Shown: one piece after another, positions 959 to 55,800 of the stretch
How the letters are laid out: each line of letters opens with the position of its first letter
How positions within the stretch are numbered: position 1 is the first letter of the stretch
Origin: Candidatus Methylomirabilota bacterium
GTDB taxonomy: Bacteria; Methylomirabilota; Methylomirabilia; Rokubacteriales; CSP1-6
DNA length: 64,000 nt
Assembly (NCBI GenBank): GCA_036506275.1
Contig: DASXSB010000031.1
Location: 642 to 64,641 of the forward strand
Direction of reading: 5' to 3'
Notes under the pieces: generated by a model
The model's database searches: none
Seen by the model: the letters and a program-made list of their open reading frames with translations, nothing else
Told to the model about the DNA's origin: nothing
Program-made: the position numbers and the translations under genes

Positions 959-1045
959 GAGGAACTTCGCAAAGCGTTCGGCCGTCCGCCGGCACCGCGA
1001 AGGCGACACCGATGCCGCTGGCCGAGTAGCGCCAGCGCCGAGGCG

Positions 1046-9120: not shown

Positions 9121-9148
9121 CCCTGTGCCCCCGTCCCCCGCGCGCGCA

Positions 9149-11643: not shown

Positions 11644-13131
11644 CTATGCCGACCGCTCCTGGAGGAGGCGGCGAGCGACTTCGCGATCGTCGAAGGGGAA
11701 GATCTCGGAGCCGATGACCTGGTAGGTTTCGTGACCCTTGCCTGCGATCACGATCGTGTCGCTTGCATGAGCCCAGAGCAGCGCTTCGTGTATCGCAAGT
11801 TCTCTATCGGGCAATCTAGCACAGCGATTCTCGTCTGCACAGACCCGAAGTGCGCCCGCCGCCACTTCTTCGATGATCGCTTCCGGCGACTCCGAGCGTG
11901 GATTGTCCGACGTGATCCACATGTGGTCGGCCAGCCGCGCCGCGATCTCACCCATGAGCGGCCGCTTGCCCCGGTCGCGATCGCCGCCGCATCCGAAGAC
12001 GACGCCGAGGCGGCCACTCGTGAGTCGCCGCGCCGTCACCAGCACGCGCTCGAGCGCATCGGGCGTGTGGGCGTAGTCGACGATGACGAGGAACGGCTGG
12101 CCCGCGTGCACCTGCTCGAAGCGTCCCGGCACCGCCGTGACGCTGGCGAGCGCGCGGGCGATGGCGTCGGGGCCGATCTCGAGGGCGAGCCCGGCGCCGA
12201 TGGCGCCGAGCAGGTTCATCATGTTGTGCTCGCCGATCAGCGGCGAGGTGATCGTGAGCTCGCCGCGCGGCGTGTCGACCTTCATGCGGATGCCGTCCAG
12301 GGACGAGCGATGCTCGCGGGCGCGCACGGCGCCGCCCCCGAGGCCGAAGGTGATGACGGGGAGATCGAGACCCCGCACCATCTCGGCCCCCGCCGGGTCG
12401 TCGGCGTTGACCACCGCCGTGCGGCCACGCTTGGGCGAGGCGGCGAGCAGCTCGAAGAGTCGGCGCTTGGCGCGACGGTACTCGTCGAGAGTGCCGTGGA
12501 AGTCGAGGTGGTCCTGCGTGAGGTTGGTGAAGATGCCGACGTCGAACGCGACGCCGTCCACCCGCGAGAGCGCCAGCGCATGCGACGATACTTCCATCAC
12601 GACCCCACCCGCGCCTCCTGCCACCATCGCCGCCAGCATCGATTGCAGCTCGAGGGCGTCCGGTGTCGTCTGGCTGGCGGGCCGCCGCTCGTCGCCGACC
12701 ACGTACTGGATGGTGCCGATGATCCCCGTGCGCAGCCCGCGCGCGCGCAGGAGCGCGTCTATCAGATACGACGTGGTGGTCTTGCCGTTTGTTCCCGTGA
12801 TGCCGACCGCGACCAGGCGCTCCGAGGGTTGACCGAAGTAGCGGTCGGCGAGGCGGGCGAGAGCGAGCCGCGCCGACGGCACGAGAACCTGAGCCACGCT
12901 GAGGTCGGGAAGCGGCGCGCCCTCGGTCACGACGATGCCCGCCCCCCGACGAACCGCCTCCGGAACGAAGCGGCGGGCGTCCGCCTTGAAGCCCGGCACC
13001 GCCACGAAGCACTCGCCCCGGCCCACCCGTCGCGAGTCGTTCGCGATGCCGGTCACCGTCGCCGGCAGCCGTCCGATCACCCGCTTTTCCGGCAGCGCGT
13101 CGAGCAACGCGGTCACGGCCATCGGTGTCAT
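11644..13131 (-). CDS. murE: UDP-MurNAc-L-Ala-D-Glu--2,6-diaminopimelate ligase MurE
   Basis: 495 aa with the P-loop GITGTNGKTTTS and a MurE C-terminal domain. Confidence 0.93.
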   Translation of the reverse strand: MTPMAVTALLDALPEKRVIGRLPATVTGIANDSRRVGRGECFVAVPGFKADARRFVPEAVRRGAGIVVTEGAPLPDLSVAQVLVPSARLALARLADRYFGQPSERLVAVGITGTNGKTTTSYLIDALLRARGLRTGIIGTIQYVVGDERRPASQTTPDALELQSMLAAMVAGGAGGVVMEVSSHALALSRVDGVAFDVGIFTNLTQDHLDFHGTLDEYRRAKRRLFELLAASPKRGRTAVVNADDPAGAEMVRGLDLPVITFGLGGGAVRAREHRSSLDGIRMKVDTPRGELTITSPLIGEHNMMNLLGAIGAGLALEIGPDAIARALASVTAVPGRFEQVHAGQPFLVIVDYAHTPDALERVLVTARRLTSGRLGVVFGCGGDRDRGKRPLMGEIAARLADHMWITSDNPRSESPEAIIEEVAAGALRVCADENRCARLPDRELAIHEALLWAHASDTIVIAGKGHETYQVIGSEIFPFDDREVARRLLQERSA

Positions 13132-15173: not shown

Positions 15174-15538
15174 CGCACCTGCGCTTCGATGCGGGCGGCG
15201 CGAGCGGCGGCCATGCCGGTGGCGCCCGCCAGGAACTCACGAGCACGCGCGACCTGCGAGGTCGACGGCGGCGCCATGCCGAGTTGCCGCGCCTGGGCTT
15301 CCACGCGGCGCGGCGACTTCAGCGTGGCCATCTCGACCTCGAGCTGACGGATGAGGGTCTCCGTGCGCGTGCGCTCCATGCGGAGCGCATCGAGCTGATA
15401 CGCGAGGTGGACCTGCTGGACGCGCTCGGCGACCACGGCCACCGCGATGCCGACGAAGAGGGCGGCGCAAGCGAGCGCGGCGACGACGGAGCGGCGCACG
15501 CGCGGATCTTGCTCTCGATGGGGACGCTGTTCTTTCAA
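15170..15538 (-). CDS. ftsL: cell division protein FtsL-like (single-TM, coiled-coil)
   Basis: 122 aa with one TM helix followed by a coiled-coil region, in the canonical position between rsmH and ftsI. Both junctions overlap the neighbouring genes. Confidence 0.75.
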   Translation of the reverse strand: MKEQRPHREQDPRVRRSVVAALACAALFVGIAVAVVAERVQQVHLAYQLDALRMERTRTETLIRQLEVEMATLKSPRRVEAQARQLGMAPPSTSQVARAREFLAGATGMAAARAARIEAQVR

Positions 15539-16407
15539 GTGAGGCGCTCCAGCACGCGGAGCTTCGCGCTCCTGGCGCGGGGGTTGGCCCGCACCTCGTC
15601 ATCCCTGGGCGTCAGGGGCGACGGCTCGAGCTCGGCGAATCCCGCCGATCCCAGAGCCCGGAACGTCCGCTTCACGATGCGATCTTCGCCCGAGTGAAAG
15701 GAGATGACACCCACGCGGCCGCCCACGTGCAGCAGCTCGGCCGCCTGGGGAAGCGCTTGGCGGAGCGCCTCCGGTTCGTCGTTCACGGCCATGCGTACGG
15801 CCTGAAAGGTCCGGGTGGCGACGTGAATCCGCCGCGACCACGCCGCGCGCGGCACGGCGCTGCGCACGGCCGCCACGAGATCGGCGGTCGTGCTGAGGGG
15901 ACGCCGCCGGGTGATCGCGCGCGCGATGCGGCGCGCGTGCGGCTCGTCGCCGTACTCGTGGAGGATGCGCGCCAGCTCCGACTCCGGAAGCCGGTTCAGC
16001 AGCTCGGCCGCCGTCGGCGCGGCCTCGGGATCGAGTCGCATGTCGAGCGGCTGTTCGCCTTCGAAGGAGAAGCCGCGCGCGGAGGCCTCGAGCTGGTAGG
16101 AGGAGAGACCGAGATCGAGCAGGACGGCGCGCGCGCGGGCGACGCCGGCGGCGCGGGCGGTGGCGGTGAGGGTGCGGAAGTTGGCGCGGCGGAGGGCGAC
16201 ACGATCACCGAAGGGCGCAAGGTTGGCGGCGGCGCGAGCGAGCGCGTCCGGATCCACGTCGAGGCCGAGCAGCTTGACCTCGGCGCCGGTCCCGGCGAGA
16301 AGCGCTGCCGCGTGTCCGCCCATGCCCACCGTCCCGTCGATCACCCACCCCTCACCGCGCGGCCGCAGGAGAAACGCGACCTCGTCGGCGAGGACGGGTA
16401 CGTGAAC
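15535..16407 (-). CDS. rsmH: 16S rRNA (cytosine1402-N4)-methyltransferase RsmH (MraW)
   Basis: Homology starts at VHVPVLADEV... with SAM-binding motifs (DGTVGMGGHA and FHSGEDRIV). The track ORF extends to 16731 into mraZ. The real start is probably just downstream of the mraZ stop and its exact codon is uncertain. Confidence 0.85.
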   Translation of the reverse strand, partial: VHVPVLADEVAFLLRPRGEGWVIDGTVGMGGHAAALLAGTGAEVKLLGLDVDPDALARAAANLAPFGDRVALRRANFRTLTATARAAGVARARAVLLDLGLSSYQLEASARGFSFEGEQPLDMRLDPEAAPTAAELLNRLPESELARILHEYGDEPHARRIARAITRRRPLSTTADLVAAVRSAVPRAAWSRRIHVATRTFQAVRMAVNDEPEALRQALPQAAELLHVGGRVGVISFHSGEDRIVKRTFRALGSAGFAELEPSPLTPRDDEVRANPRARSAKLRVLERLT

Positions 16408-43534: not shown

Positions 43535-44683
43535 CTAGAAGAACAGGCGCGCGAGGCCCTTCACGGCGTGAGAGGACACGAAGCGGAGCCGCCGCGCGTA
43601 TGCCACGACGAGCGAGCGCCCGCCAGCGGCTCCGTACTCGGTGGCCATGAACTCGGGCGACGGGAAGAGCAGCGAGCGCGCATAGCGCGCGCGTTCACCG
43701 AAGGTCGGAAGCGCGAAGAGGGCGGCCAGGCTCTCGCCGCCCTCGACCCCGCCCTCGGACGACGCCAGTCTCGCCAGCCATCGATCACGCACGCGGAGGG
43801 GGGCACGGCCGAGCGTATCCCGCACGCCCGGCGGCACCGGCGTGTAGAGGAGGTTGCACACGACGTTGATCAGCGGCGCGATGAGCGGCGCGACCGCGGC
43901 CGCCTCCGCTTCCGCCACGAACGTCAGCCAGTCGAGCCCGGCGCCTTCGCGGCGGACGAGGCGATCGATCTCGTAGAGCCAGAGGAGGGGCGCGTCCGCG
44001 CCCTTGTGGACGGCATGGAGACAGAGATGGAGAAGCAGATCGGCCGGCGCCAGCCGCCACGTCTCCACGCCGGCGACGGTCGCGCGGCGGCAGCGATGCC
44101 ATACGCGCTCCATCGCCACGCGCTCGCCGAACGGCGGGTACGCGATCGTCCAGTGGGGCTCCACGATCATCCAGCCGTGGCGCTGCTTCGCGAACTCGAG
44201 CGTGTAGGAGAACGCGCGCGCGAACCCGGGCCGGCGGTCGATCTCCTGGAATCCGCGCTCCTGCAGGAGCGCGGTCAGCGCCTCCAGCTCGCTCTTGCGC
44301 ACGAGCAAATCGAGATCGCCCATCGGACGCACGCTCGCATCGTCGTGGAGGCGCTCGCCGAGCGCGAGGCCTCGGAGCGGCGCGACCGACAGCGAGCGCT
44401 GGGCGGCGGCCCCGACGATGTCGGCGAGCTCGCTCGCGAACATCAAATTCCGGGCGGCCACTCCCGCCGCGCGCGCCCTCAGCGCTTCGCGCGCGAGCTC
44501 CGGCACCGCGGCCGCGGTCCCGCCCGCCACGAGGGCGCGGTGCAGGAGCGGCGTCAGCGCGTGGCGGTCGGCCTCGTCGAGCGCCGCCGTCCAGCCGTCC
44601 GCGGGCACGAGACCCAGGAGCGTGTCGGCGCTCTCGCCGCGCATGAGGGCGAGCAGCAGCGGATGCGCGCGAGGCGGCGTCAT
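43535..44683 (-). CDS. uncharacterised nucleotidyltransferase-family protein (Pol-beta-like NTase), lasso-cluster associated
   Basis: ATG at 44683 gives MTPPRAHPLLLALMRGESADTLLG...; NTase motif GDLDLLV (hG-x-DxD). It overlaps the kinase stop (ATGA). The track ORF 43535..45700 is over-extended. Confidence 0.75.
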   Translation of the reverse strand: MTPPRAHPLLLALMRGESADTLLGLVPADGWTAALDEADRHALTPLLHRALVAGGTAAAVPELAREALRARAAGVAARNLMFASELADIVGAAAQRSLSVAPLRGLALGERLHDDASVRPMGDLDLLVRKSELEALTALLQERGFQEIDRRPGFARAFSYTLEFAKQRHGWMIVEPHWTIAYPPFGERVAMERVWHRCRRATVAGVETWRLAPADLLLHLCLHAVHKGADAPLLWLYEIDRLVRREGAGLDWLTFVAEAEAAAVAPLIAPLINVVCNLLYTPVPPGVRDTLGRAPLRVRDRWLARLASSEGGVEGGESLAALFALPTFGERARYARSLLFPSPEFMATEYGAAGGRSLVVAYARRLRFVSSHAVKGLARLFF

Positions 44684-45663
44684 GCCGCGAGGTCCACCTC
44701 GACGGCCGCCCGCACCGCGCGCAGGCGATGGAGGCCGCGGGGGAAGCTCAAGCGCTTGACGGGAACGGCGACCGCGAGCCGTGCCGCCAGCTCGAACTGG
44801 CGCGCGAGACGAGCGGGATCGCGAACGAGCGTGTTGAACGTGGCGCGCACGAGCTCCACGAACGCCGCGCGCGGCGAGAGCGGCTCGATCGCGACCGCGG
44901 GCGGGCGGGGACCCTTTGGAGAGCCAAGGACGTAAAGCGCCGCCAGCGGCGCCGCCTCCGCGTGGCCGAGACCATTGCGGAGGGGGATCACGAGCTTCGG
45001 CGTGAGATCGTTCATCGGCGTCCCGCCCGCGGCGTCCCCGAGCACCGCGCGCGCGACGTGAGGAAAGAGCTTGATGCGCGCCGGGCCGGGATGGGCGAGA
45101 TAGCCCCGGGGATCCGGCGTCAGCACCAGGAGATCGTCGGTGAGCAGCGCGTGTCCCGCGCGGAGAAAGGCGGCGCCGAGGCTCGACTTGCCGTACCCGC
45201 AGTCGCCCACGAAGCCGACGGCGCGGCCGTTCACCACCGCCGCCGTCGAGTGGAGCGGTTCCCGGCCCAGCCGGAGCAGCGCGAACGAGAGCGTGTGGCC
45301 GAGGAGGTACGTGCGAAACGCCTCGAAGGCGTCCCTGCGCAGCGGCCGGCAATCGATGGCGCGACCGTCGGCGGCGACCAGGAACTCGAAGAGTCCGCGC
45401 CAGCGCACGTAGTCGGCGCCGTCGGCGAGGCGCGCGTGCTCGAACCACGCTGCCGGCGCCCGGCGGCGGAGCTGACGCCGCGCGGGCGCGAAGAACGCGG
45501 CCGGGCGCTCGTGGATCGCGGCCTCGGGCGGCCGGCCGTCTTCTCCACGCGGACACGGAAGCGGCACCACGCTCGCCACGCGCAGTCCGTAGACCTCGTA
45601 GGTGGCGGGATCGCCGGGCGCCGCGCCACGAGAGGCGCGCACGGTCGGGATCGCCGTCCTCAT
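44680..45663 (-). CDS. HPr-kinase-related serine kinase (lasso peptide tailoring kinase family)
   Basis: ATG at 45663 gives MRTAIPTVRASRG.... It has the HprK C-terminal-like domain with Walker A GDCGYGKSSLG. Its start overlaps the precursor stop (ATGA). Confidence 0.8.
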   Translation of the reverse strand: MRTAIPTVRASRGAAPGDPATYEVYGLRVASVVPLPCPRGEDGRPPEAAIHERPAAFFAPARRQLRRRAPAAWFEHARLADGADYVRWRGLFEFLVAADGRAIDCRPLRRDAFEAFRTYLLGHTLSFALLRLGREPLHSTAAVVNGRAVGFVGDCGYGKSSLGAAFLRAGHALLTDDLLVLTPDPRGYLAHPGPARIKLFPHVARAVLGDAAGGTPMNDLTPKLVIPLRNGLGHAEAAPLAALYVLGSPKGPRPPAVAIEPLSPRAAFVELVRATFNTLVRDPARLARQFELAARLAVAVPVKRLSFPRGLHRLRAVRAAVEVDLAA

Positions 45664-45815
45664 CCGCTCCCCGCGCGCGTCTTGGGGCCGGGGTTGGCAC
45701 CGTTGTTGGCTTCGTTCTTCGCCTTCTGCGTGCCCTCCGTGAGCGTGCGGAGGTCGCCGTAGCGCCGGAGGCGCGGCGGCGCGTACGGCTTCTTCGTGTG
45801 GGTCGGTGTCGTCAT
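45660..45815 (-). CDS. lasso peptide precursor (51 aa)
   Basis: MTTPTHTKKPYAPPRLRRYGDLRTLTE|GTQKAKNEANNGANPGPKTRAGSG. The leader matches YxxPxLx3Gx5Tx exactly (Y11, P14, L16, G20, T26). The core starts with Gly1 and has Glu8 for an 8-residue macrolactam. A GGGGGAG RBS lies 6 nt upstream. The ATG overlaps the upstream cyclase stop and the stop overlaps the kinase start. The gene is missing from the ORF track because it is under 60 aa. Confidence 0.85.
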   Translation of the reverse strand: MTTPTHTKKPYAPPRLRRYGDLRTLTEGTQKAKNEANNGANPGPKTRAGSG

Positions 45816-47692
45816 GTCGTTCTCCCCCAGAAGCGCTCGAGCCAGCGATCCACCGTGACGAGGAACCAGACTTCCCAGCGCAGCTCTTTTTGACCGGCGA
45901 CGTAGCGGTCCACCAGCCGTCGCGCCGATCGGAGGTCCACGTAGCGGCCGAGGCGGCCGGAGCGGTTCTCGAGCGCGGCCGGAGGATCGCGGCGGCACAG
46001 CGCGGTGAGGCTCCGGTCCATCGTGTCCGTCCAGTCGCCCTTGCCGCGCCGGAAGCGGATGGTGTCGGGCACGATGCCGCGCATCGCGCTTCGAAGTAGC
46101 CGCTTCCGCTCACCGCCGTGCGTTCGCCGCGTCGACGGCACGGAGAGGACGTACTCCACGAGCCGGGCATCGAGGAACGGAAAGCGCGTCTCCACGCCCG
46201 CCGCCGCCGACGCGCGCTCGTCGACCTCGAGCTTCAACACCTGGTACGCGCTGGCCACGCAGAGATAGCTGTCGGCTTGCGCGAACGATGGAAACGGGAC
46301 GGTGTGCCACGGCTCGCGCAGGCGATCGCGCAGGCCGACGGCGCGCGCCAGTCCTCCGTTGATCCACGGCGGCGGCGCCCGCCGCAGAGCGCGCTTGGCG
46401 ACGTACTTCATCCGCGGCGGGACCAGCAGCGCGAGGGCCATGCCCGCGAACTGCGCCCGGCTCCCGCCGTACCACGAGGCGAACGCGCGCGTGTCGTGGA
46501 GGAAGCGGCGGAGCCGGAGCTCGTGCACGAGGTCGGCGAGATACCCGACCTCGTCGAGGAGATGATCGCCGCCGTCGCCGGAGAGCAGCACGCGGCAACC
46601 CCACGCCAGAACGGCGTCGGTGCCGGCGAGCACGCTCTGGCGAGCCGCTCCCACGATGGGGCTCTCCACCTCCCACAGCAGCTCGTCGATCCGGTGGAGA
46701 GGATCATCGTCGGCGGCGTGGATCTCATGGCCCTTGCGACCGGTGGCGGCGACGACGTCCCGCGCGAACGTCCGCTCGTCGGAGGCAGGGTCATCGGAAA
46801 AGAGCGTGAACGCCTCCAGCGCCGGCACGCCACCGTCGGGGCCGCCGCCGTACCGCTCGGCCGTGCACAGGATCGCGGAGGAGTCGAGGCCACCACTAAC
46901 GAAGACGCCGATCGGGAACTCGCTGCGCAGGCGGCAGCGCACGGCCTCGGCGAACAGCGTCAGGAAGTGGTCGACGTACTCGTCGTCGCGCGCGTAGCGC
47001 GTCTCGCGCAGGGGATCGATGGCCCAGTACCGCCCCACGCGGGCGACGCCGTTGCGCACGGTCAGCACGTGTCCCGGCGGGAGCCGGCACATCCCGCGAA
47101 AGAACGTGCGGTCGTGATCGCGCTCGCGGAACTCGCGGAGCAGGAACGCGAGCACCATCTCGTCGTCGGGCTCCGGGATGGCGCCGCGCGCGGCCAGCAA
47201 CGGCTTGATCTCGGATCCGAAGAACAGCGTCGGCCCCGCCCATGTGTAGTGCAGGGGCTTGAGCCCGAGGCGGTCGCGCGCGCACACGAGCGTTTGCACG
47301 CGGTCGTCCCACAGCGCGAACGCGAACTCGCCGACCATGTGGTCGAGCGCGCGCAGACCCCAGCGGCGGTACGCGCGAAGCACGAGCGCGGGGTCGGTGG
47401 CGCCGGCCCCCGGCGCCATGTCGGCGCCGAGCGTCACCGTCAGCTCCTGGCGGTTGTCGAGGCGCCCATCCCAGACGAGCCGGACGTCACCGGTGTCGTC
47501 GATGACGGGCTGCTTTTCGTGGAGCGATTCCGGCGTCGTGTAGAGCAGGCGATGCCCGAGACCGATCGGCCCCTCGTGCCACTGGCCTTCCCCATCCGAG
47601 CCGCGATGCGCGATGGCCTTGACCATCCGCGCGAGCGTGGTCGGGTCCACGGGGCGACCGTCGGTGCGATGGATTCCGACCAGTCCGCTCAC
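45812..47692 (-). CDS. lasso peptide lactam synthetase, asparagine-synthetase-like cyclase paralog 2
   Basis: GTG at 47692 gives VSGLVGIHRTDG.... There is no catalytic Cys2 (Ser instead). It carries the PP-loop FVSGGLDSS and a full AsnB-like C-terminal domain. Its start overlaps the paralog-1 stop (GTGA). Confidence 0.8.
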   Translation of the reverse strand: MSGLVGIHRTDGRPVDPTTLARMVKAIAHRGSDGEGQWHEGPIGLGHRLLYTTPESLHEKQPVIDDTGDVRLVWDGRLDNRQELTVTLGADMAPGAGATDPALVLRAYRRWGLRALDHMVGEFAFALWDDRVQTLVCARDRLGLKPLHYTWAGPTLFFGSEIKPLLAARGAIPEPDDEMVLAFLLREFRERDHDRTFFRGMCRLPPGHVLTVRNGVARVGRYWAIDPLRETRYARDDEYVDHFLTLFAEAVRCRLRSEFPIGVFVSGGLDSSAILCTAERYGGGPDGGVPALEAFTLFSDDPASDERTFARDVVAATGRKGHEIHAADDDPLHRIDELLWEVESPIVGAARQSVLAGTDAVLAWGCRVLLSGDGGDHLLDEVGYLADLVHELRLRRFLHDTRAFASWYGGSRAQFAGMALALLVPPRMKYVAKRALRRAPPPWINGGLARAVGLRDRLREPWHTVPFPSFAQADSYLCVASAYQVLKLEVDERASAAAGVETRFPFLDARLVEYVLSVPSTRRTHGGERKRLLRSAMRGIVPDTIRFRRGKGDWTDTMDRSLTALCRRDPPAALENRSGRLGRYVDLRSARRLVDRYVAGQKELRWEVWFLVTVDRWLERFWGRTT

Positions 47693-49566
47693 GCGGCGGC
47701 GCCCACGACGACGGTCCCCTCGGGCGCCCACTGCTTCAGCCATCGTTCGAGCTTGACGAGGTTCCACAGAAGGGTGCGGGAGGGCACGTGTCCGCCGAGA
47801 TACCGGTCGCGCATCTGCTCGGCCTCGGCGCGCCGCACGTAGGCGAAGACACGGGCGTCGGCGCCGAAGAGCTCGCGATCCCAGCATCGCGCCTCCAGAC
47901 GCGCGGTGAGCTCGGGATCCCGGGATCCGACCGCGTGGGTGTTCTCCGCACCTCGCGCCGGCCCGGCCGCGGATGCGAGGGCATGCTGGACGAACTGCTT
48001 GCGGTATCCGCGTCCGAGCTTCACATCGGCGGGCACGGCGAGGAAGAACTCGATGAGTCGCCGGTCCAGGTACGGGTACCGGCACTCGAGCCCGAACGCC
48101 GACGCCACGGCGTCCATCTGATCGAGCGCGAACACCGTGGCCGGATTCGTGAGTGCCCGGTACGTCGTCTCCTGGCACCAGGTGGGAAACGTGCGCGGCG
48201 GACGCTCCACCGTCCGCTCTTGCATGCCCACCCGCTTCGCGAACGCGGGCTCGATCCACTCCGGCACCTGCCGTCCCGCCAGCGTCTTCACGCGCCGGCG
48301 CCACGCGGGAGAAAGCTGGCCCCAGAGCAGCCAGAGCAGCGTGGCGGCCGAGGCGTCACCGCCGTAGGCGGCAGCGCGGAGGCGGAGGTCGCGGCGCAGT
48401 CGGAGCAGCCGCCCGGCGCGGAGGAGGTCCGCCAGGAATCCGTCCTCGGCGCTCTGGCTCAGCTCGTCGGCGCCGAAGCCGCTGAGCAGGGTGCGACAGC
48501 CGACGTTCCGCGCCGGCTCGAGAAGGAGGGGGACCGTCGGCAAGCCGTCGTGGTGCGGTGTTTCCCCGCACTCCATGAACGGCTCGAACGACGTCACCGG
48601 CGCGCCGCCCGCGGACGGAACGACGCGACGTATCGGTGTCCCGTACACCAGCTCCAGCCATTCGAGCGCGCCCGCCTCCTCCGCGTACATCTCGTCGTCG
48701 AAGAGCGTGAGGCCCTCCAGGGGAGGCAATCCCGGATCGTCGGCGCGCAACGATTCCGCGGTGGCGGCCACCGACGTGGAATCGATCCCGCCGCTGAGCA
48801 ACATTGCGACGGGACCTCTCCCCGGGAGCCGGCACCCGACCGCGTCCCGGAACAGCGCCGTGAAGTGATCGAGATAGTCGTCCTCGCGGCGATAGCGAAG
48901 CTCGCCTCCACTCGCGGGCGTCCAGTAGCGAACGATCTCCACGCCATGGGGACGGAGCCGCAGAACGTGTCCGGGCGGGAGCCGCCGAATCTCCGCGAAG
49001 AAGGTGGCGCTGGAATCGCGAAAGCCCATGAGGAGGAGATCGGCGACGGTGGCCTCGTCCAGCCCGCGGCCGACGTCGGGATCGGCGAATAGTGCCTTGA
49101 TCTCCGACGCGAACAGCAGGCGGCGGCCGTTCCAGTGGTAGTAGAGCGGCTTGACGCCGAGCGCGTCGCGCGCGCAGAGCAGCGTCCGCGTGCGCTCGTC
49201 CCACAGCGCGAGCGCGAAGTCGCCGGCGATCCGCGCAAACGCGTCTTCACCGCGGGCGCGGTATATCTCCAAGATCATCTCGGCGTCGGACCAAGCGGAC
49301 GTCGCGCGCTCGGCGCCGAGCACGGCGCGATCGTCGACTCGTCCGTCCCAGGTGATCCAGCACTGGCCCGCCGCATCCGCCACCGGGGCCTTTTCGCGCA
49401 GCGACGCCGGCGTGGTGGCGAAGAGGCGGTGCCCGAGCGCGATCGGCCCTTTCGCCCACTGCCCCTCACCGTCCCGCCCACGGTGCGAGAGAGCCTCGGT
49501 CATCCGCGCCAGCAGCGCGGGGTCGGCGAGACCGCCGTCGACGCGGCAGATACCGGCGATGCCGCT
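47689..49566 (-). CDS. lasso peptide lactam synthetase, asparagine-synthetase-like cyclase paralog 1
   Basis: ATG near 49566 gives MSGIAGICRVDGG.... It has Ser, not Cys, at position 2 and the PP-loop LLSGGIDST. Its start overlaps the B2 stop (ATGA). My local indexing is uncertain by about 3 nt. Confidence 0.8.
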   Translation of the reverse strand, partial: SGIAGICRVDGGLADPALLARMTEALSHRGRDGEGQWAKGPIALGHRLFATTPASLREKAPVADAAGQCWITWDGRVDDRAVLGAERATSAWSDAEMILEIYRARGEDAFARIAGDFALALWDERTRTLLCARDALGVKPLYYHWNGRRLLFASEIKALFADPDVGRGLDEATVADLLLMGFRDSSATFFAEIRRLPPGHVLRLRPHGVEIVRYWTPASGGELRYRREDDYLDHFTALFRDAVGCRLPGRGPVAMLLSGGIDSTSVAATAESLRADDPGLPPLEGLTLFDDEMYAEEAGALEWLELVYGTPIRRVVPSAGGAPVTSFEPFMECGETPHHDGLPTVPLLLEPARNVGCRTLLSGFGADELSQSAEDGFLADLLRAGRLLRLRRDLRLRAAAYGGDASAATLLWLLWGQLSPAWRRRVKTLAGRQVPEWIEPAFAKRVGMQERTVERPPRTFPTWCQETTYRALTNPATVFALDQMDAVASAFGLECRYPYLDRRLIEFFLAVPADVKLGRGYRKQFVQHALASAAGPARGAENTHAVGSRDPELTARLEARCWDRELFGADARVFAYVRRAEAEQMRDRYLGGHVPSRTLLWNLVKLERWLKQWAPEGTVVVGAAA

Positions 49567-50003
49567 CATCGTGGAGATCCCGCGCGCGTGGAGAGCAGAG
49601 GCGCGAAGCCGCATCCGTCGTCGCCGAACAGCACTTCCCCGTCGCGCTCGAGCCAGGCGTGGGCGGCGAGCGCGCCGTCGCGGCGGGCGACGCCGATCTG
49701 GAGCGTGGTGGCGATGCCGCGGCGGCGGAGGAGCCAGGAGAGAACGAGCGCTTGCTTGAGGCAGGTCACGCGCCCCGGCGCGTAGCGGCCGGCGACCTCG
49801 ACCAGCCACGCCAGCCGTGCGATCGACAGCGACGACCCTGCCGGCGCCGGGGGGCACCCGGGAAAGACGTCGGCCAGCTTCAGCAACGACGCGAGGGGAA
49901 GAAAGACGAGGCCGGCATCGGCGACGAAGAAGAGAACCCAGGCACGAACGAGGAGCGCGCGCTCCCCCCGCGGAAGCTGCGCGAGCTTAAGCAGCCGCCC
50001 CAC
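49563..50003 (-). CDS. lasso peptide leader peptidase B2 (transglutaminase-like cysteine protease)
   Basis: Probable GTG start about 14 nt before the B1 stop gives VGRLLKLAQLPRGERALLVRAWVLFF...; Cys-His-Asp triad context in GRVTCLKQALVLSWLLRRRGIATTLQIGV and ALAAHAWLERDGEVL (Transglut_core3-like). Confidence 0.8.
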
Positions 50004-50286
50004 GCTCCACGTCCACCAGCTCGTTCTCGCGCAGGGCCACCACCAGGCGCAGGAGGTCCCACTCGGCCTCGTCCGGCGTGACATCGTACTCGGCGAGAAC
50101 CGCCGCGAGGGCAGCGCTCAGCGTCGGATCACGGGTGAGCGCCTGCCAGATGGTCGTGCCCACCGGATCGAGACCGAAGTAGACGCCCGTGGTGAGGTTG
50201 AGAATGACGGCCTCGCCGTCGAGATCGCGCGAGACCACGTCGGAGCGAATGCGGATGCGCGTGTCGAGCGTGATGCCGCCCTTCAT
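49987..50286 (-). CDS. lasso peptide leader-binding protein B1 (PqqD-like RRE)
   Basis: ATG at 50286 gives MKGGITLDTRIRIRSDVVSRDLDGEAVILNLTTGVYFGLDPVGTTIWQAL..., a typical PqqD/RRE winged-helix sequence. The track ORF extends far upstream as an antisense artefact. Confidence 0.8.
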   Translation of the reverse strand: MKGGITLDTRIRIRSDVVSRDLDGEAVILNLTTGVYFGLDPVGTTIWQALTRDPTLSAALAAVLAEYDVTPDEAEWDLLRLVVALRENELVDVERGAAA

Positions 50287-50477: not shown

Positions 50478-50547
50478 GCCCGCCAGGCCCGGTATGATGG
50501 CGGGCGTGACTTCGTCTCGATGGCCGGAGGCGCACGCGCGCTGCGGC

Positions 50548-52122
50548 ATGGTCGCCTCCCCTCACGCGCTCGCGTCTCAGGCGGGCGTGGCGATCCTCGC
50601 CGCCGGCGGCAACGCCATCGATGCCGCGATCGCCGCCGCCATCACGCTCGCGGTCGTCTATCCGCACATGAACGGCATCGGCGGCGACAACGTCTGGCTC
50701 ATCTACGACGCCGGCCGCGCCGACCTGCGCGGCCTGAACGCCGCTGGCCGCTCCGCGGCGTCGGTGACGCTCGACGCCTACCGGGCGCGCCACGACGGCG
50801 CGATGCCGATCCGCGGCGGTGCCGCCGCGCTCATGGTGCCGGGTACAGTGTCGGGGTGGTGGGAGGCGCATCGCTACAGCCGGGATCGCATGGGCTCGCC
50901 GGTGGCGTGGACGACGCTCTTCGACCACGCCATCCGCCACGCGCGCGACGGATTTCCGGCATCGGCCGCCCAGCGGCGGATGACCACGGCCGCGCCGGGA
51001 ATCTTCGAGCCGAGCGCCGCTGCCGACGTGCGGCGGACGCTGTGGCCGATCTACCATCCGGATAGACTGACCGCGCCTGCCTTCGTCCAGACCGATCTCG
51101 GCGCCACGCTGGCGGCGGTGGCGGCGGGCGGGAGCGACGAGTTCTATCGCGGCGCGCTCGCGCGGCGCTTGGTGGCAGGCGCCGCCGCCGTCGGGAGCCC
51201 GCTCACCGCTGCCGACCTGGAATCACACCGCGCGGATTGGGTCACGCCGCTGCGCATCCTTTATCGGGGTGGGGAGGCGGCGACCCTTCCCCCGCCGACG
51301 CAGGGCATGTCCGCGCTCGCGATCCTGGCCCTGCTCGAAGGCTTCGAGCTCGATGTCCTCGACGACGCCACCTACGTCCATCTCGTCGTGGAGGCGACGA
51401 AGCTCGCCTTCGAGGACCGCGACCGCTACCTTGCGGACCCCACCGTCGTCGCCGTGCCCGTGGAGACGTGTCTCGACCGTGGGCGCCTCGAGCACCGTCG
51501 CACGGCCATCTCCGCGCGAGCGGCGAGGCCGGCCGCGAGCGCGCATGCGGGCGGCGGTGACACGGTGGCCATCGTGACCGCGGACGCGGACGGCAACGCG
51601 GTGTCGGTGATCCAGAGCCTCTACCACGAGTTCGGAGCGGGCGTGGTGGCGGGAGACACCGGCATCGTGCTGCAGAACCGCGGCGCCTTCTTCTCGCTCG
51701 ATCCGGCGCATCCCAACTGTCTGGCGCCGCGCAAGCGCACCGCCCACACGCTGATCCCGTCGATGTACCTCGTCGGGGGGCGGCCACGCTTCGTCTACGG
51801 CACCATGGGCGGCGAAGGGCAGCCGCAAACACAGGCCGCGCTCGTCACACGACTGGTCGACCGTGGCCTCGGCCCCCAGGCCGCGGTCGAGGCACCGCGC
51901 TGGCTTTTCGGCCGCACGTGGGGCGAGGTGTCGCGCAGCCTTCGCCTCGAAGGGCGCTTCGGTCCGGCGACGGCGGAGGCGCTGCGCGCGCGGGGGCACG
52001 ACGTCGTGCTGATCGACGACTGGAGCGATCTCGTCGGCCACGCCCAGGTGATCCAACTCGACGGCGACGGCCTGCGCGGCGGATCGGACCCGCGCGCGGA
52101 CGGTGCTGCTCTCGGGTGGTGA
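50548..52122 (+). CDS. gamma-glutamyltransferase-family protein
   Basis: GGT motifs are present (MVASPHALASQAGVAILAAGGNAIDAAIA; catalytic Thr region TTHTLIPSMYL-like; GGEGQPQTQAAL). The start could be at 50494 or 50548. Confidence 0.8.
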   Translation: MVASPHALASQAGVAILAAGGNAIDAAIAAAITLAVVYPHMNGIGGDNVWLIYDAGRADLRGLNAAGRSAASVTLDAYRARHDGAMPIRGGAAALMVPGTVSGWWEAHRYSRDRMGSPVAWTTLFDHAIRHARDGFPASAAQRRMTTAAPGIFEPSAAADVRRTLWPIYHPDRLTAPAFVQTDLGATLAAVAAGGSDEFYRGALARRLVAGAAAVGSPLTAADLESHRADWVTPLRILYRGGEAATLPPPTQGMSALAILALLEGFELDVLDDATYVHLVVEATKLAFEDRDRYLADPTVVAVPVETCLDRGRLEHRRTAISARAARPAASAHAGGGDTVAIVTADADGNAVSVIQSLYHEFGAGVVAGDTGIVLQNRGAFFSLDPAHPNCLAPRKRTAHTLIPSMYLVGGRPRFVYGTMGGEGQPQTQAALVTRLVDRGLGPQAAVEAPRWLFGRTWGEVSRSLRLEGRFGPATAEALRARGHDVVLIDDWSDLVGHAQVIQLDGDGLRGGSDPRADGAALGW

Positions 52123-52131
52123 CGGACTCCG

Positions 52132-53226
52132 CTATCGTAGGAGTCGCGCGTAATTCTGGCGGCAGCTTACGACTTTCGGATGACCCGGCCCGAGCGATCT
52201 CTCGAAAATCCGGAGGGCGCGTCGATAGAGCGCCTCCGCCCTCGTTCCCCTACCCGTCTGCTTGTTGAGCAGCGCGAGGTTGTTCAGCGTCATGGCGACA
52301 TCCGGATGCTCACGGCCAAGCACTCTCTCCTTGACCGCCAGGGCTCGCTGATAGAGCCGCTCGGCTTTCGCGTGCTCGCCCCGCGCTTGGTGTATGGCCG
52401 CCAGATTGTTGAAGTTTACGGCGAGCTCGTAGTGGTTGCGGCCGAACCTGCGTTCGAAGACTGTGATTGCTCTGCGATACAGCGGCTCCGCCTCATGGTG
52501 CTTGCCCTGACGATCGAGGATCGCCGCCAGCGCGGCCGCGTCGGCCGCCACATCGCGATGATTCGCACCGAGCCCTTTCTGCCTGATCTCCACCGAGCGC
52601 CGGGCGAACGACTCGGCCCGGGCATACCTGCCGCGGGCGTGCTCGAGGCCACCCAGGTTGTGATAGATCGTCGCGACCTCGGGATGGCTCGCGCCGAGCG
52701 CTCTTTTCGTGATCGACAGCGCCCGACCGTAGAGCCGCCGCGCCTCGTCGAAACGCCCCGTGTACTTATAGAGAACGGCCAGGTTGTTGAGCAGGGCCGC
52801 AGACTGCAGATCGTCGGTACCGAACTTGGCTCGTGCGATACGCAGCGCGCGCGCGAAGAGTCGCGCCGCCTCGCGATAGCGGCCCTGCACGCGCTGGATG
52901 TTGGCGAGCTTGCCGAGTGCGTCCGCATAGAGCCTGTCGGCGCGGTCAACGCCACGTGTCTCCCCGAGAATTTCGACGCAGCGACGGTAACACCGTTCGG
53001 CGTCGGCATACTCGCTGCACTCCTCGTGAATCGCGCCCAGCGTTTTCAGGACGCGCGCGCTGTCGGGACTCTGGGCCCCGCCCGCGCGCTTCAGGACCCT
53101 CAGCGCGCGAGCGCAGGCCCGTCGCGCCTTCGCATACTCCCCGCGCCCGAGGTCGAGCGTGGCGAGATGGTGAAGCCGGCGCGTCTCTTCATATCCCTCC
53201 TTGCGATCGCGTCCGTTCCGGATCAC
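52132..53226 (-). CDS. tetratricopeptide-repeat (TPR_10/12-type) protein
   Basis: 364 aa made almost entirely of about 42-aa TPR units (ALxxLAxLYxxQGRYxEAEPLYRRAL...). Its GTG start overlaps the stop of small peptide P1 (GTGA). Confidence 0.8.
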   Translation of the reverse strand: MIRNGRDRKEGYEETRRLHHLATLDLGRGEYAKARRACARALRVLKRAGGAQSPDSARVLKTLGAIHEECSEYADAERCYRRCVEILGETRGVDRADRLYADALGKLANIQRVQGRYREAARLFARALRIARAKFGTDDLQSAALLNNLAVLYKYTGRFDEARRLYGRALSITKRALGASHPEVATIYHNLGGLEHARGRYARAESFARRSVEIRQKGLGANHRDVAADAAALAAILDRQGKHHEAEPLYRRAITVFERRFGRNHYELAVNFNNLAAIHQARGEHAKAERLYQRALAVKERVLGREHPDVAMTLNNLALLNKQTGRGTRAEALYRRALRIFERSLGPGHPKVVSCRQNYARLLR

Positions 53227-53405
53227 GGCGTCTGGCGCACCTCGTCGACGAGCAGTGTCTCGTTGTGGTTCAGGCCGCAGCCGGGACGACCGACTTGGTC
53301 TGAGCCGCCCCCGCTGACCTTCGTCGCGCTCGCCTTCTTCGGTGGTAGGTCCTTGACCCTGGTGCGTGCCGACGTCTTCTTCGGTTGACCTTTCGTGCTC
53401 TTCAT
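53223..53405 (-). CDS. small peptide P1 (60 aa) of a three-member paralogous family
   Basis: MKSTKGQPKKTSARTRVKDLPPKKASATKVSGGGSDQVGRPGCGLNHNETLLVDEVRQTP, with a GGGAGG RBS. It shares the VKDLPPKK...GG...RPGCxxNHNETLLxD pattern with P2. Confidence 0.65.
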   Translation of the reverse strand: MKSTKGQPKKTSARTRVKDLPPKKASATKVSGGGSDQVGRPGCGLNHNETLLVDEVRQTP

Positions 53406-53429
53406 CGCTGCCTCCCTGGGTCCCGTTCG

Positions 53430-53606
53430 TTAACGCGCCGCCTGGCGAGCGTCGAGGAGCAAGGTCTCGTTGTGGTTGATGTTGCAGCCCGGTCGATAGA
53501 CTTCGTCCGAGCCGCCCTTGACCTTCACCTCGCGCGTCTTCTTCGGTGGCAGGTCCTTGACCGTGGTGCGTGCCGTCGTCTTCTTCGTCGGGCTCTTCTC
53601 TCTCAT
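53430..53606 (-). CDS. small peptide P2 (58 aa), paralog of P1
   Basis: MREKSPTKKTTARTTVKDLPPKKTREVKVKGGSDEVYRPGCNINHNETLLLDARQAAR, with a GGGAGG RBS and a 24-nt spacer to P1. It is under 60 aa and so not in the track. Confidence 0.65.
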   Translation of the reverse strand: MREKSPTKKTTARTTVKDLPPKKTREVKVKGGSDEVYRPGCNINHNETLLLDARQAAR

Positions 53607-53918
53607 CTTCGCCTCCCGTCGATTCTCAGATCGTGGTTGCTGCGCACAGTGAACTATGCAACGGGCATACCGGAAATGCGCTGCCGTAAGCCTCCAGCAA
53701 CTTTTCTTGGGTGATCACAGGAGATCTAAAGACAAGCCACAGGAACTGAGGGAACACGCGACCGTCAGTGTCTACTGCAGCAGACGGCATGGCTACAGAA
53801 GTAGACGGTTCCGACGTCTTCACTGTCCATACCGAGGTCGCCTGGGATTAGAACGGGGTTCCCGTGCTGCCTCGGCGCAGGCGCTAAGTTGGGCGACTTC
53901 CTGCGCTGCCACCAAACG

Positions 53919-54056
53919 TCAACCTGCCGCTTCGCGTACCTTCTGACCGCCCTGCACGCGCTCCCCCTTGGCGCCGGCCGGCAGGTCCTCCAGACGAGCC
54001 TTAGGACGTTGCTCCTCACGCTGGTTGGTCGTCTCTACCTTCGTGTCCTGGTCCAT
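53919..54056 (-). CDS. small peptide P3 (44 aa), truncated or divergent paralog of P1/P2
   Basis: MDQDTKVETTNQREEQRPKARLEDLPAGAKGERVQGGQKVREAAG with an AAGGGAGAG RBS. It shares the LEDLP...V.GG leader-like segment but lacks the Cys/NHNETLL core. Confidence 0.45.
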   Translation of the reverse strand: MDQDTKVETTNQREEQRPKARLEDLPAGAKGERVQGGQKVREAAG

Positions 54057-54289
54057 GATCACTGCTCTCCCTTGGTGACGGTGCAGCCGAAGAGTCCTGG
54101 CTTCATCGCATCTCTTCCCCCGCCTCGTTCGCTGAGGCGACGTAGCCTAGCACGGGCGTGCGGCAAGCACCGTGCCAAATCCACAGCGCGCACCTCGGCG
54201 CAGAACATCGCTGTATGAAAGCGTTGACGGTAGGCGATCAGAACGAGGCAAGAGCCGAGGCGTGCCTCATCACGAAGACAGTGTGTCTT

Positions 54290-54466
54290 CGAAAGGCGTC
54301 AGCACCGCCGGGCGGTCACCACGTGGACAAAATTCTGAAAAGCGCGAAGCCGAGCGAGTTGCCGGTCGAAACTCAAGACCGGCAAACCCTGGGCCTCACG
54401 ATCCCGCCGTGGTTCCTGTCGCGCGCGAGATCATCCAATGACGTCGTCCGATCCGACACGTCTTAG
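54290..54466 (+). pseudogene. decayed C-terminal fragment of an ABC-transporter substrate-binding protein
   Basis: The translation ...HHVDKILKSAKPSELPVETQDRQTLGLTIPPWFLSRARSSNDV resembles the conserved C-terminus of ABC SBPs (motif: ...[35 protein letters not shown]...) with an internal deletion. It sits in a lower-GC region with no intact ORF. Confidence 0.45.
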
Positions 54467-54990
54467 TCCAGCGCGACCTCCCTGGAGAACACCGTGAACG
54501 AGGAGCGGCGGGTGGCGGCGAGCGCCTCGCTGATCTCGGCGGCGCCGCGGCCGGCGCCCTGACGCAGGAGCACCTCGAAGAAGCGTGTGTAGAACCAGTC
54601 GGGGTAGACCACGACGCTGAAGCGCGCGCGCACGCCGGGCGCGCCCGCGCGCCCCCGATACTCGAGCACCGCCGTCGCGCCCGGGAGCAGGCGCGTGTCG
54701 CTCACCTCGGCGGCGAGGTCGAGGGTGACGTCGCGGGCGATCACCGTCTCCTGCCGCGTTCCCGCCACCACCTGCCCCGCTCCGTCCACGAGCTCACCGC
54801 GCAAGACCACCCGTGGCGTGACGTAGGTCGGAAACGCGTGCCCCACCCCCGTGTTGGTGACGCTCAGGGTGCCGATCACGCGATCGCCGTCGCGCGACGG
54901 CGGTGACGCCCCGTCGAGCTTGACCGTGATGCCGGAGCGCACCATCTCCGCGTCGTGGATGCCGCGCCACAGATGGCGGCGATCCGGCAT
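54463..54990 (-). CDS. hypothetical protein encoded 4 nt downstream of the multiheme cytochrome
   Basis: 175 aa with no recognisable motifs. It is co-directional and essentially abutting the cytochrome gene. Confidence 0.4.
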   Translation of the reverse strand: MPDRRHLWRGIHDAEMVRSGITVKLDGASPPSRDGDRVIGTLSVTNTGVGHAFPTYVTPRVVLRGELVDGAGQVVAGTRQETVIARDVTLDLAAEVSDTRLLPGATAVLEYRGRAGAPGVRARFSVVVYPDWFYTRFFEVLLRQGAGRGAAEISEALAATRRSSFTVFSREVALD

Positions 54991-54993
54991 GTG

Positions 54994-55689
54994 TCAGTCC
55001 TGGCACTGAACCCCCGCCGTCGCGAACCGGCTCGCCGCCCATTCGCGGTACGTGTTCTCGAGCAGCTTGCCGTTGAGGGCAAAGCCGTCGTCGGTGAACT
55101 GATGACATCCGCGGCAGAACTCGGCCGTCAGAAAGGCCGGCGTCCGCGTCACCCCGCGGTGAGGAAGGTTCTCCCGTGGCGCCGCGCTCGCCGTGCTGCC
55201 GTCACGGCGCGGGGGGCCGAACCGCTCGTGGCCGCGCACGTGGCAGCCCGCGCAGGGGATGCCTTTCGGGCGGAGCGTCGCGTCGAACGCGGGGTTGGGC
55301 ACGAGGCCGCCGTCCTTCGGCACGAGCGGTCGCTGTTCGAAGAGCGGCGCGTGGCAATTCTGGCAGTCGAGCGCGCTCCGCGGCTCCTTTTCCAGCATCT
55401 CGCGGAGCTGGCCGGCCACCCCCGGTCCCATGGACGCGGCATGAATGCTGCCCCGCCAGTCCGCGTGCTGCACGGGATGGCAGGTGCCGCACGCCTCCGG
55501 TTGCAGCGACGCCTCGACCGGCGTGAAGCGTGACGGCGGAAGTCCCTGCTGCGGAAGAGGCTGCCGCCAGTGTCGGGTCACGAAATCTTCAGCGGCCAGG
55601 GCGAGACCGAACAGGAGCGTGACAAGCGCGGCAAGCACGACACCGAACGGGACGGCGACGGGGACGGAAGAGGCCGGCACTCGGCGCAT
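54994..55689 (-). CDS. tetraheme c-type cytochrome
   Basis: 231 aa with an N-terminal TM/signal anchor and four CxxCH motifs (CGTCH, CQNCH, CAGCH, CRGCH). Confidence 0.8.
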   Translation of the reverse strand: MRRVPASSVPVAVPFGVVLAALVTLLFGLALAAEDFVTRHWRQPLPQQGLPPSRFTPVEASLQPEACGTCHPVQHADWRGSIHAASMGPGVAGQLREMLEKEPRSALDCQNCHAPLFEQRPLVPKDGGLVPNPAFDATLRPKGIPCAGCHVRGHERFGPPRRDGSTASAAPRENLPHRGVTRTPAFLTAEFCRGCHQFTDDGFALNGKLLENTYREWAASRFATAGVQCQD

Positions 55690-55800
55690 CGCCCTACGTT
55701 ACCAGCCGTGCTCTCCCGATGGCATTCGTCGTGCAGTTTCGAGTCCTAGCCTCTGGATGTGAAGGTCTTTCACCAACACCCGACGACGAGGGACAGGACC

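Follow-up and report, generated by a model that had tools for sequence, protein, structure and literature searches.

In a 64,000-nt stretch of a Candidatus Methylomirabilota contig (DASXSB010000031.1), hereafter the window, to which all positions refer unless another contig is named, two small paralogous genes, P1 and P2, lie in a row upstream of a gene for a protein composed entirely of tetratricopeptide repeats (TPR). To judge from their sequences, P1 and P2 are members of a widespread and previously undescribed peptide family, in which a leader and a short variable segment precede a motif of the form NHN(E/Q)T. The motif peptide(s) and the TPR protein constitute a two-gene core that is conserved, mobile across phyla and usually found within a peptide-export operon, and this appears to be a peptide–partner system of soil bacteria that had not been recognised before. 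The components of the locus in the window are the following:

52132..53226, minus strand: TPR gene, a 364-aa all-TPR open reading frame (ORF) matching Pfam TPR_12/TPR_10
53223..53405, minus strand: P1, a 60-aa precursor-type peptide, recognised by ORF and ribosome-binding site (RBS), family alignment and profile matches
53430..53606, minus strand: P2, a 58-aa paralogue of P1, recognised by ORF and RBS and by alignment
53607..53918, minus strand: P2-P3 spacer, non-coding, with a block conserved in related contigs
53919..54056, minus strand: P3, a possible small gene of 45 aa counted from its ATG, with an RBS and an ORF kept in the related contigs L001-L004

P1 consists of a basic leader (…VKDLPPKK…KVSGG), the variable segment GSDQVGRPGCGL, and the motif NHNETLLVD with a tail, and P2 of the leader …VKDLPPKKTREVKVKGG, the variable segment SDEVYRPGCNI, and NHNETLLLD with a tail. 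The initial annotation had described the two as related peptides, which is borne out by their identity of ~60%, their shared invariant pattern and the profile-defined family to which both belong. When they are aligned with six copies from related contigs, the N-terminal half is near-invariant (K-D-L-x-P-K-K…G-G), and is followed by D-x-V; farther on, R-x-G and H-N-E-T-x-L are invariant and enclose four variable residues. Two further features of the initial annotation were likewise recovered, i.e. the strong GGGAGG-type Shine-Dalgarno sequences, which lie 6–9 nt ahead of P1 (AGGGAGG), P2 (GGGAGG) and P3 (AAGGGAGAG), and the overlap of the TGA of P1 with the GTG start of the TPR ORF (GTGA), the latter scoring 316 bits against TPR_12 and 223 bits against TPR_10. 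The generalised motif NHN[EQ]T has just two sites in all six frames of the 64 kb, exactly those in P1 and P2, which the public record of this Methylomirabilota metagenome-assembled genome (MAG) calls as genes VGL09_05995 and VGL09_06000, both hypothetical proteins.

The segment of 52.0–54.5 kb has a G+C content of 0.61–0.67, versus ~0.70–0.74 in its flanks, and a G+C content at third codon positions of 0.78–0.85, versus 0.84–0.93 in the neighbouring genes, which is compatible with horizontal acquisition. The number of peptide genes varies among close relatives, with three in L001 (2214..2594) and L002 (735..1348), and two in the window and L003. Relative to the three-copy contigs, the window and L003 show a clean deletion of one unit (53549 region), whose junction falls within the repeated AAGGACCTGCCACCGAAGAAG (KDLPPKK); P1 is mosaic, combining sequence from two of the three L001/L002 paralogues, and the third peptide of L001 is frameshifted and fused to the TPR ORF. 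Peptide copy number changes by recombination between units. The conservation of P1-P3 in L001-L005 was also considered as a sign of selection and was dropped, because the intergenic DNA of these contigs is just as conserved.

A single-sequence search returned four close relatives only, and the distant members of the family were reached by profile search: in an exhaustive HMMER scan of 1.84 billion representatives, the A2 profile matched 52 proteins at E≤1e-3. These contain 1–12 copies of NHNET per protein, and one metagenome ORF contains 15. The family is spread over Methylomirabilota, Acidobacteriota and Cyanobacteria, and in each cassette a leader and 3–12 variable residues are followed by NHN(E/Q)T(L/F/M)(V/L)xD. 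Asn precedes the His in 95% of 192 motif sites and Gln in 5%, position +4 is Leu/Phe/Met/Val/Ile, position +5 is Val/Leu, and position +7 is Asp in 71%; Gln replaces Glu (NHNQT) in many loci. About 35% of the variable segments before the motif contain a Cx4C pair. The Cys in the core of P1 and P2 is not conserved across the family, and the suggestion that the Cys/His/Asn/Glu core could be a modification or metal-binding site found no support. No Pfam, NCBIfam or PADLOC model covers the NHNET motif, P1, P2 and P3 have no NCBIfam or Pfam match at E≤1, and neither the motif strings, searched for in full text, nor the architecture of the system turned up anything relevant in the literature.

The linkage of these peptides to a TPR gene was observed from both sides. 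Starting from the peptides, and in loci with enough sequence, an orthologous kinesin-light-chain-like TPR gene lies directly downstream in 10 of 11 independent lineages, the sole exception being the acidic-leader peptide of L007-L009. The orthologue (hmmsearch E≤1e-78) is on the same strand and directly 3' of the peptides in the window, L001-3, L006, L010, L011 and L012-16/18; the linked loci include L006 (G+C 0.54), six Pyrinomonadaceae/Blastocatellia/Acidobacteriota MAGs and a cyanobacterial MAG (G+C 0.47), and cover G+C contents of 0.47–0.70 and three phyla. The profile search with P1 and P2 that had been proposed along with the initial annotation has thus returned homologues adjoining orthologous TPR genes in three phyla. 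The overlap of peptide stop and TPR start recurs in L016 and in the cyanobacterial L011, where a 65-aa NHNET peptide overlaps the TPR start codon. Starting from the TPR protein, a scan of metagenome contigs with a cross-phylum alignment confirmed at least 562 loci; among the 80 best of these, peptides with the generalised motif adjoin the TPR gene in 50, another 15 have less than 300 nt of upstream sequence and are uninformative, and 15 are without any motif peptide. In 372 kb, 158 motif matches fall on the TPR strand versus 8 on the opposite strand. An indexed protein search with the TPR sequence was swamped by generic long TPR_12 proteins and yielded no specific name, and a Nocardia homologue (49% identity) was rejected as a generic TPR protein with no adjacent peptides.

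In the AlphaFold2 model of the window TPR protein (predicted local distance difference test score 95.6), the chain forms a 17-helix solenoid without an extra domain. The last helix (350–363) carries K351 and the invariant N358, which, being seven residues apart, should lie on one face of it, as expected from helix periodicity. The closest solved folds are kinesin light chain (KLC) TPRs with cargo peptides (33–37% identity), the APPBP2 degron receptor (TMq 0.84–0.87) and LGN, all of which are receptors of short linear motifs. We distinguished 43 loci of the Glu type from 16 of the Gln type, the latter being polyphyletic and found in 6–7 separate TPR clades. At Lys351, part of the 'HPK' with which the last helix begins, K or R occurs in 24 of the 30 non-redundant Glu-type loci versus 2 of the 11 Gln-type loci (Fisher p 5e-4). 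This is the best of 278 columns, with a family-wise label-shuffle probability of 0.05 for a statistic that ignores phylogeny; the runners-up, 348, 352, 354 and 364, are in the same segment. The covariation of the motif Glu/Gln with Lys351 is thus suggestive only. Furthermore, in Acidobacteriota whose peptides have Sec-type signals, the TPR protein has an N-terminal transmembrane helix, i.e. it takes a membrane anchor exactly where the peptides take Sec signals. Four indirect lines, namely co-occurrence and coupling, co-localisation, covariation and structure, would be consistent with binding of the motif by the TPR protein, and the initial suggestion of a TPR-receptor/peptide pair stays viable through the K351 covariation and the motif-receptor fold, the physical binding itself being what we infer from them. 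The motif (peptide form GCNINHNETLLLD) and TPR K351/N358 offer a testable recognition pair.

The leaders that precede the motif are of several kinds. Those of the window and of soil relatives are basic, of the form 'KDLPPKK…KGG' or 'KVKTNVKAGG', and the soil cassettes finish in '…KVKTNVKAGG', resembling '…VKVKGG' of P2; G32 and G33 are invariant in all eight aligned copies ('…KVKGG'/'…KVSGG'). One cyanobacterium has canonical LSEEDLEAIVGG leaders, a further kind consists of acidic 'EELEEVIAP' segments, and Acidobacteriota have Sec-type signal peptides followed by amphipathic spacers. The leaders of the cyanobacterial protein P0034 score above the curated cut-offs of three double-glycine (GG) leader models, TIGR01847, TIGR04149 and NF038167 (37.8 vs 15.7, 52.9 vs 32 and 33.1 vs 25 bits). 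Homology to NHLP/Nif11 leaders was not detected for P1/P2, and the TIGR03793 score of P0034, 17.9 bits, is under the cut-off (50.9). Two members of the wider family also show unusual builds. P0053, a 474-aa protein found in the representative search, begins with an M6-metalloprotease-like domain, to which eight acidic-leader NHNET cassettes are fused, and may be a natural protease-substrate fusion. Contig L011 (JBCBZT010000027.1) encodes, at 589..1920 and 8780..9824, five small GG-leader peptides with short acidic cores (…LIAGG/KPKEDDQPIDGE), and its 'KEDDEP' core is also the last cassette of two NHNET proteins, so that a single precursor combines different core types. Also encoded nearby are a haem-oxygenase-like/cupin protein (11772..12833) and an MvdD-type ATP-grasp protein (15243..16238).

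Clustering of the neighbour genes of the 80 best TPR loci revealed recurring same-strand families, i.e. Peptidase_C39+ABC_tran proteins, HlyD proteins, and proteins of ~900 aa in which a daptide-type HExxH intramembrane metalloprotease is fused to HlyD. Export genes are on the same strand in 29 of the 48 relatives with enough flank. The C39-ABC transporter has the NHLP export peptidase/permease as its best NCBIfam match, under the cut-off, and the catalytic Cys motif of the C39 exporters in these operons is intact. Three operon layouts were seen, namely peptides→TPR→HlyD→C39-ABC, ABC→ABC→peptides→TPR, and acidic polycassette→short TPR→HExxH-HlyD, and on the 1.9-Mb contig L100 the order is HlyD→C39-ABC→ABC→three peptides→TPR. 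Exporters are absent from the Acidobacteriota loci with Sec-type signals. In 7–8 Acidobacteriota loci (L006, L007, L012-L016, L018), an extracytoplasmic function (ECF) sigma factor (PF07638) and a Ser/Thr kinase adjoin the operon, usually divergently, the kinase being of 830–1025 aa with a PD40 beta-propeller or TPR sensor domain. This link is real in Acidobacteriota and was rejected as a general feature, as no homologue of the ECF sigma or of the kinase is found in the window. A ~1000-aa protein with TPR_12 and a caspase-like CHAT protease domain lies divergently upstream of the acidic-leader polycassette operon in L062, L066, L072, L075 and L079, and was rejected as a processing enzyme, being confined to one clade of 80–99% identical loci. 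A PAP2/vanadium-haloperoxidase-like protein is encoded near the TPR gene in 4 Acidobacteriota loci.

Taking these observations together, P1 and P2 would be ribosomally made precursors, in which each cassette consists of an export leader (here basic and ending in Gly-Gly), a hypervariable segment, and the invariant motif Asn-His-Asn-(Glu/Gln)-Thr-(Leu/Phe)-(Val/Leu)-x-Asp. The TPR protein, translationally coupled to P1, would most likely hold NHNET in its concave groove inside the producer cell, and would act before or during export. The C39-peptidase ABC transporter with HlyD, or the HExxH-HlyD fusion, from the same operon probably cuts the leader in most relatives, after Gly-Gly where it ends so, and exports the peptide; in this genome, where none was found among the ten largest ORFs of the window, the export genes may be supplied from elsewhere or missing. 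We give about an even chance to the view that the precursor is what the TPR protein acts on, within the producer cell, whether as a chaperone, a hand-off factor or an immunity-like binder, and favour it because the TPR gene is coupled to the last peptide gene and its product follows the compartment of the precursor. The action of the released peptide may be that of a bacteriocin, a signal or a modified peptide.

Several observations weigh against this account of P1 and P2. Neither peptide matches the GG-leader hidden Markov models (HMMs) TIGR01847, TIGR04149 and NF038167. Canonical GG leaders are amphipathic, with hydrophobic residues at -4, -7, -12 and -15; of these positions in P2 only -4 (V) conforms, the others being E (-7), P (-12) and D (-15), and in both peptides the hydrophobic -7/-12/-15 pattern is missing and Pro-Pro stands at -12/-13. 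The double-glycine leader proposed in the initial annotation gains support from the cyanobacterial relatives that pass the models, and from the many relatives with C39-ABC/HlyD genes in their operons, but P1 and P2 themselves do not match these models. No C39, ABC or HlyD gene is found among the ten largest ORFs of the window, the only ones scanned, all of which are housekeeping genes, so that a smaller HlyD could escape; downstream of the TPR gene there is a convergent gamma-glutamyltranspeptidase gene. The TPR protein is constant under three export routes, which argues against a role tied to any one exporter. The K351 covariation is borderline, and 15 of the 65 informative TPR loci (at least 300 nt upstream or adjacent peptides) are without a recognisable peptide. 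Finally, TPR_12 proteins are consensus-like, and unrelated ones reach 40–55% identity; TPR similarity alone is therefore weak evidence of orthology, and it is the linkage of peptide and TPR gene, not the similarity, that constitutes the evidence.

Other explanations of the same genes have to be weighed. The peptides and the TPR protein might be a pheromone and its receptor, which we consider unlikely: the cassettes would be cut into secreted signals made up of the variable residues and NHNET, the TPR protein would be an RRNPP-like receptor, and in Acidobacteriota the signal would feed the adjacent ECF sigma/Ser-Thr kinase pair. The multi-copy short cassettes do resemble pheromone polyproteins, the TPR fold is that of short-motif receptors, the E/Q of the motif co-varies with K351, the variable residues adjoin the motif and could set specificity, and the divergent ECF sigma (PF07638) and Pkinase genes, the latter with PD40 or TPR sensors, stand beside the operon in the 7–8 Acidobacteriota loci. 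However, the TPR protein is without a helix-turn-helix (HTH) or other output domain and its top structural matches are not Rap, NprR or PlcR, no ECF sigma or kinase homologue accompanies it in the window, and ECF-kinase pairs are extremely common in Acidobacteriota; the switch of the TPR protein from one compartment to another along with the precursor also fits an action on the precursor better than the sensing of a re-imported signal. It is a rather doubtful, tentative proposal that NHN(E/Q)T and TPR form a cell-cell signalling system of Gram-negative soil and freshwater phyla (Acidobacteriota, Methylomirabilota and Cyanobacteria), as an independently evolved analogue of RRNPP; if true, it would be the first general peptide-signalling module in these phyla, and otherwise the system would represent new bacteriocin- or RiPP-like chemistry (RiPP, ribosomally synthesised and post-translationally modified peptide). 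A true RiPP is a reading that we hold to be distinctly improbable. In it NHN(E/Q)T would be the recognition or modification site of a maturase encoded elsewhere, and the TPR protein a substrate-recognition scaffold that plays the role of a RiPP recognition element (RRE) or resembles the FxSxx-COOH system TPR protein. The repeated cassettes of leader, hypervariable core and conserved flank resemble cyanobactin-type precursors, ~35% of cassettes have Cx4C pairs, and L011 has the haem-oxygenase-like/cupin and ATP-grasp genes nearby. The FxSxx-COOH system TPR protein is also the best NCBIfam match of the TPR protein, but at a score of 162, under the cut-off of 300; no modifying enzyme recurs across the loci, where only TPR and export genes recur, and the Acidobacteriota precursors appear to be exported by Sec, beyond the reach of cytoplasmic enzymes dependent on ATP or S-adenosylmethionine (SAM). 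We think it very unlikely that the cassettes are structural repeat proteins (e.g. beta-solenoid-like units of 20–25 residues) or small intracellular proteins, left unprocessed and with the TPR protein as a mere partner. The soil cassettes are indeed regular, 20–25 residues long, alternately polar and hydrophobic and rich in Asn/Gly turns; against this stand the single-cassette genes in tandem arrays with unit deletions, the three unrelated leader types that are interchangeable before the same motif, the bona fide GG leaders of some members, and the operons that include C39 exporters with their catalytic Cys motif intact.

The last explanation concerns a complete lasso-peptide gene set at 43535..50270 on the minus strand, 2–10 kb from the peptide locus:

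49987..~50270, minus strand: PqqD/B1
49566..50084, minus strand: transglutaminase-like B2
47689..49857 and 45812..~47690, minus strand: two Asn-synthase homologues
45660..45815, minus strand: canonical lasso precursor of 51 aa (MTTPTHTKKPYAPPRLRRYGDLRTLTE/GTQKAKNEANNG…), recognised by its leader and core features
from ~45663 downwards, minus strand: HPr-kinase-like P-loop ORF, without Pfam confirmation
43535..~44640, minus strand: NTP_transf_5

The precursor of this cluster (MTTPTHTKKPYAPPRLRRYGDLRTLTE/GTQKAKNEANNGANPGPKTRAGSG) has a YxxPxLxxxG leader, Thr at -2 and a Gly1…Glu8 core, and, to judge from the kinase/nucleotidyltransferase pair, the lasso peptide may be tailored by phosphorylation or glycosylation. 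The statement of the initial annotation that no maturase is nearby is contradicted by this gene set; as regards C39 transporters, none was found among the ten largest ORFs. P1 and P2 could be imagined as additional precursors of the cluster, with a Gly1–Glu8 macrolactam formed after cleavage behind Arg-x: PqqD, B2 and the two Asn-synthase homologues lie 2–6 kb downstream of the TPR gene end on the same strand, and in P1, P2 and 62% of family sites a Gly (in P1 and P2 the invariant one after Arg-x) precedes the Glu by exactly seven residues, a spacing that corresponds to an 8-membered lasso ring. The reading is almost certainly wrong, and was ruled out on several grounds. The cluster owns its canonical precursor, P1/P2 have Arg at -2 and no YxxP leader, Gln stands for Glu in 16 loci, Gly is missing in 38% of sites, and the family includes multi-cassette members, which to our knowledge do not occur among lasso precursors; moreover, lasso genes are absent from ~90 other loci (L006, L010-L018 and the neighbours of 80 TPR loci), and the convergent gamma-glutamyltranspeptidase gene lies between the two units. 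The earlier conclusion that the peptides are not lasso-like holds on these other grounds, but its argument from a missing acidic residue was flawed, as the invariant Glu is residue 8 from Gly. In annotation, P1/P2 are not to be assigned to the neighbouring lasso cluster.

P3, by contrast with the two motif peptides, is of uncertain standing. Its sequence (…LEDLPAGAKGERVQGG QKVREAAG) is without the NHNET motif, and its likeness to P1/P2 is limited to 'DLP…VQGG'; since its score of 3.3 bits against the P1/P2 family profile was equalled by 61 of 2000 shuffles of P3 (3%), the family of three paralogues claimed in the initial annotation is not established, and P3 was rejected as the third of them. 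It may nevertheless be a real small gene: its ORF is intact in four related contigs (L001-L004), with indels in multiples of three, and its G+C content at codon positions 1/2/3 (0.78/0.46/0.72) is coding-like, although these contigs are too close to the window to discriminate, the intergenic DNA being equally conserved. Its part in the peptide/TPR system is uncertain. In the spacer between P2 and P3, a block at ~53625..53816 is conserved in the L001-L003 alignment and holds the inverted repeat GTCTACT…AGTAGAC; the spacer probably serves the P2-P1-TPR operon as promoter or regulatory region. Rfam gave no match over 52000..55800, and a scan for sigma-70 promoters and terminators found nothing on the minus strand and no sigma-70 consensus in the spacer.

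Further features flank the locus. A non-coding block ahead of P3 (~54120..54300), also without an Rfam match, is conserved in L001-L003, and a near-perfect inverted repeat at 54273..54291 (CGAAGACA-CAC-TGTCTTCG in minus-strand reading) is a possible operator, or a possible terminator of the upstream cytochrome gene. That gene is represented by a multihaem cytochrome ORF (54994..55689) and an ORF at 54463..54990 (minus strand), which together correspond to one 396-aa gene in L001. At 54991..54993 (minus strand) the window has TGA where L001 has TGC, encoding the second Cys of a CxxCH haem-binding motif (CQD-C/stop-H), and a hairpin begins 6 nt past the TGA (-37 kcal/mol, z = -2.96). The TGA may have arisen by nonsense mutation or by an error of assembly, or it may, less probably, encode selenocysteine; the window contains no selenocysteine tRNA. 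On the other side, the gamma-glutamyltranspeptidase gene (50494..52122, plus strand) is separated from the convergent TPR gene by a 9-nt gap. It is probably unrelated to the peptide system, since this arrangement is kept in L001 and in no other lineage.

Among known systems, a near likeness is to the GG-leader/C39-ABC-HlyD export of class II microcins and bacteriocins, such as colicin V (CvaC/CvaAB), and of NHLP/Nif11 'NHLM' cassettes, with which the family shares tandem paralogous small peptides and a Gly-Gly-ended N-terminus. The operons of relatives are also alike, with Peptidase_C39+ABC, a second ABC protein and HlyD, whose best NCBIfam matches are NHLM exporter families, under their cut-offs, and some NHNET members pass GG-leader models, whereas P1/P2 do not. 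The family differs in its invariant internal motif, in having up to 15 cassettes per protein, in its obligatory partner, a TPR protein of 330–400 aa where the known systems have a small membrane immunity protein, and, in the window, in having no exporter among the scanned ORFs. With the RRNPP systems (Rap–Phr, NprR–NprX, PlcR–PapR, AimR–AimP) it shares a TPR gene that adjoins, and is co-transcribed with, a small gene for a secreted pro-peptide, and the grooves of TPR proteins are binding sites for short linear peptides. The RRNPP systems described to date come from Firmicutes and their phages; the receptors include an HTH or another effector portion, and the propeptides leave the cell by Sec and are taken up again. 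The NHNET TPR protein, on the other hand, is of the KLC/TPR_12 type without an extra domain, its gene follows those of the peptides, and the system occurs in Gram-negative soil phyla. Cyanobactin-type precursors (PatE) likewise have repeated cassettes, short hypervariable cores and conserved flanks; here, by contrast, there are no PatA/PatG-type proteases or heterocyclases, and the flank is NHNET and the partner a TPR protein. The FxSxx-COOH TPR protein (NF040586), the best NCBIfam match of the window TPR protein, is also of the TPR_12 type and is annotated as a constant part of a peptide-precursor system; only the TPR part of its 830-position model is matched (162 bits vs 300), and no FxSxx peptide or radical-SAM gene was found in the window. 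KLC, APPBP2 and LGN, the best structural matches, share the fold and the 'LNNLA' Asn-ladder repeats; these are eukaryotic adaptors, and the likeness is one of fold and binding mode only. The parts of the system, i.e. GG-type peptides, C39 exporters and TPR motif receptors, are familiar, and what is new relative to the searched libraries and literature is the conserved motif, the multi-cassette build and the obligatory TPR partner. With at least 562 TPR loci in soil metagenomes, up to 15 cassettes, at least three phyla and no Pfam/NCBIfam model to date, the definition of this family would make a new class of exported peptides from poorly cultured soil lineages searchable.

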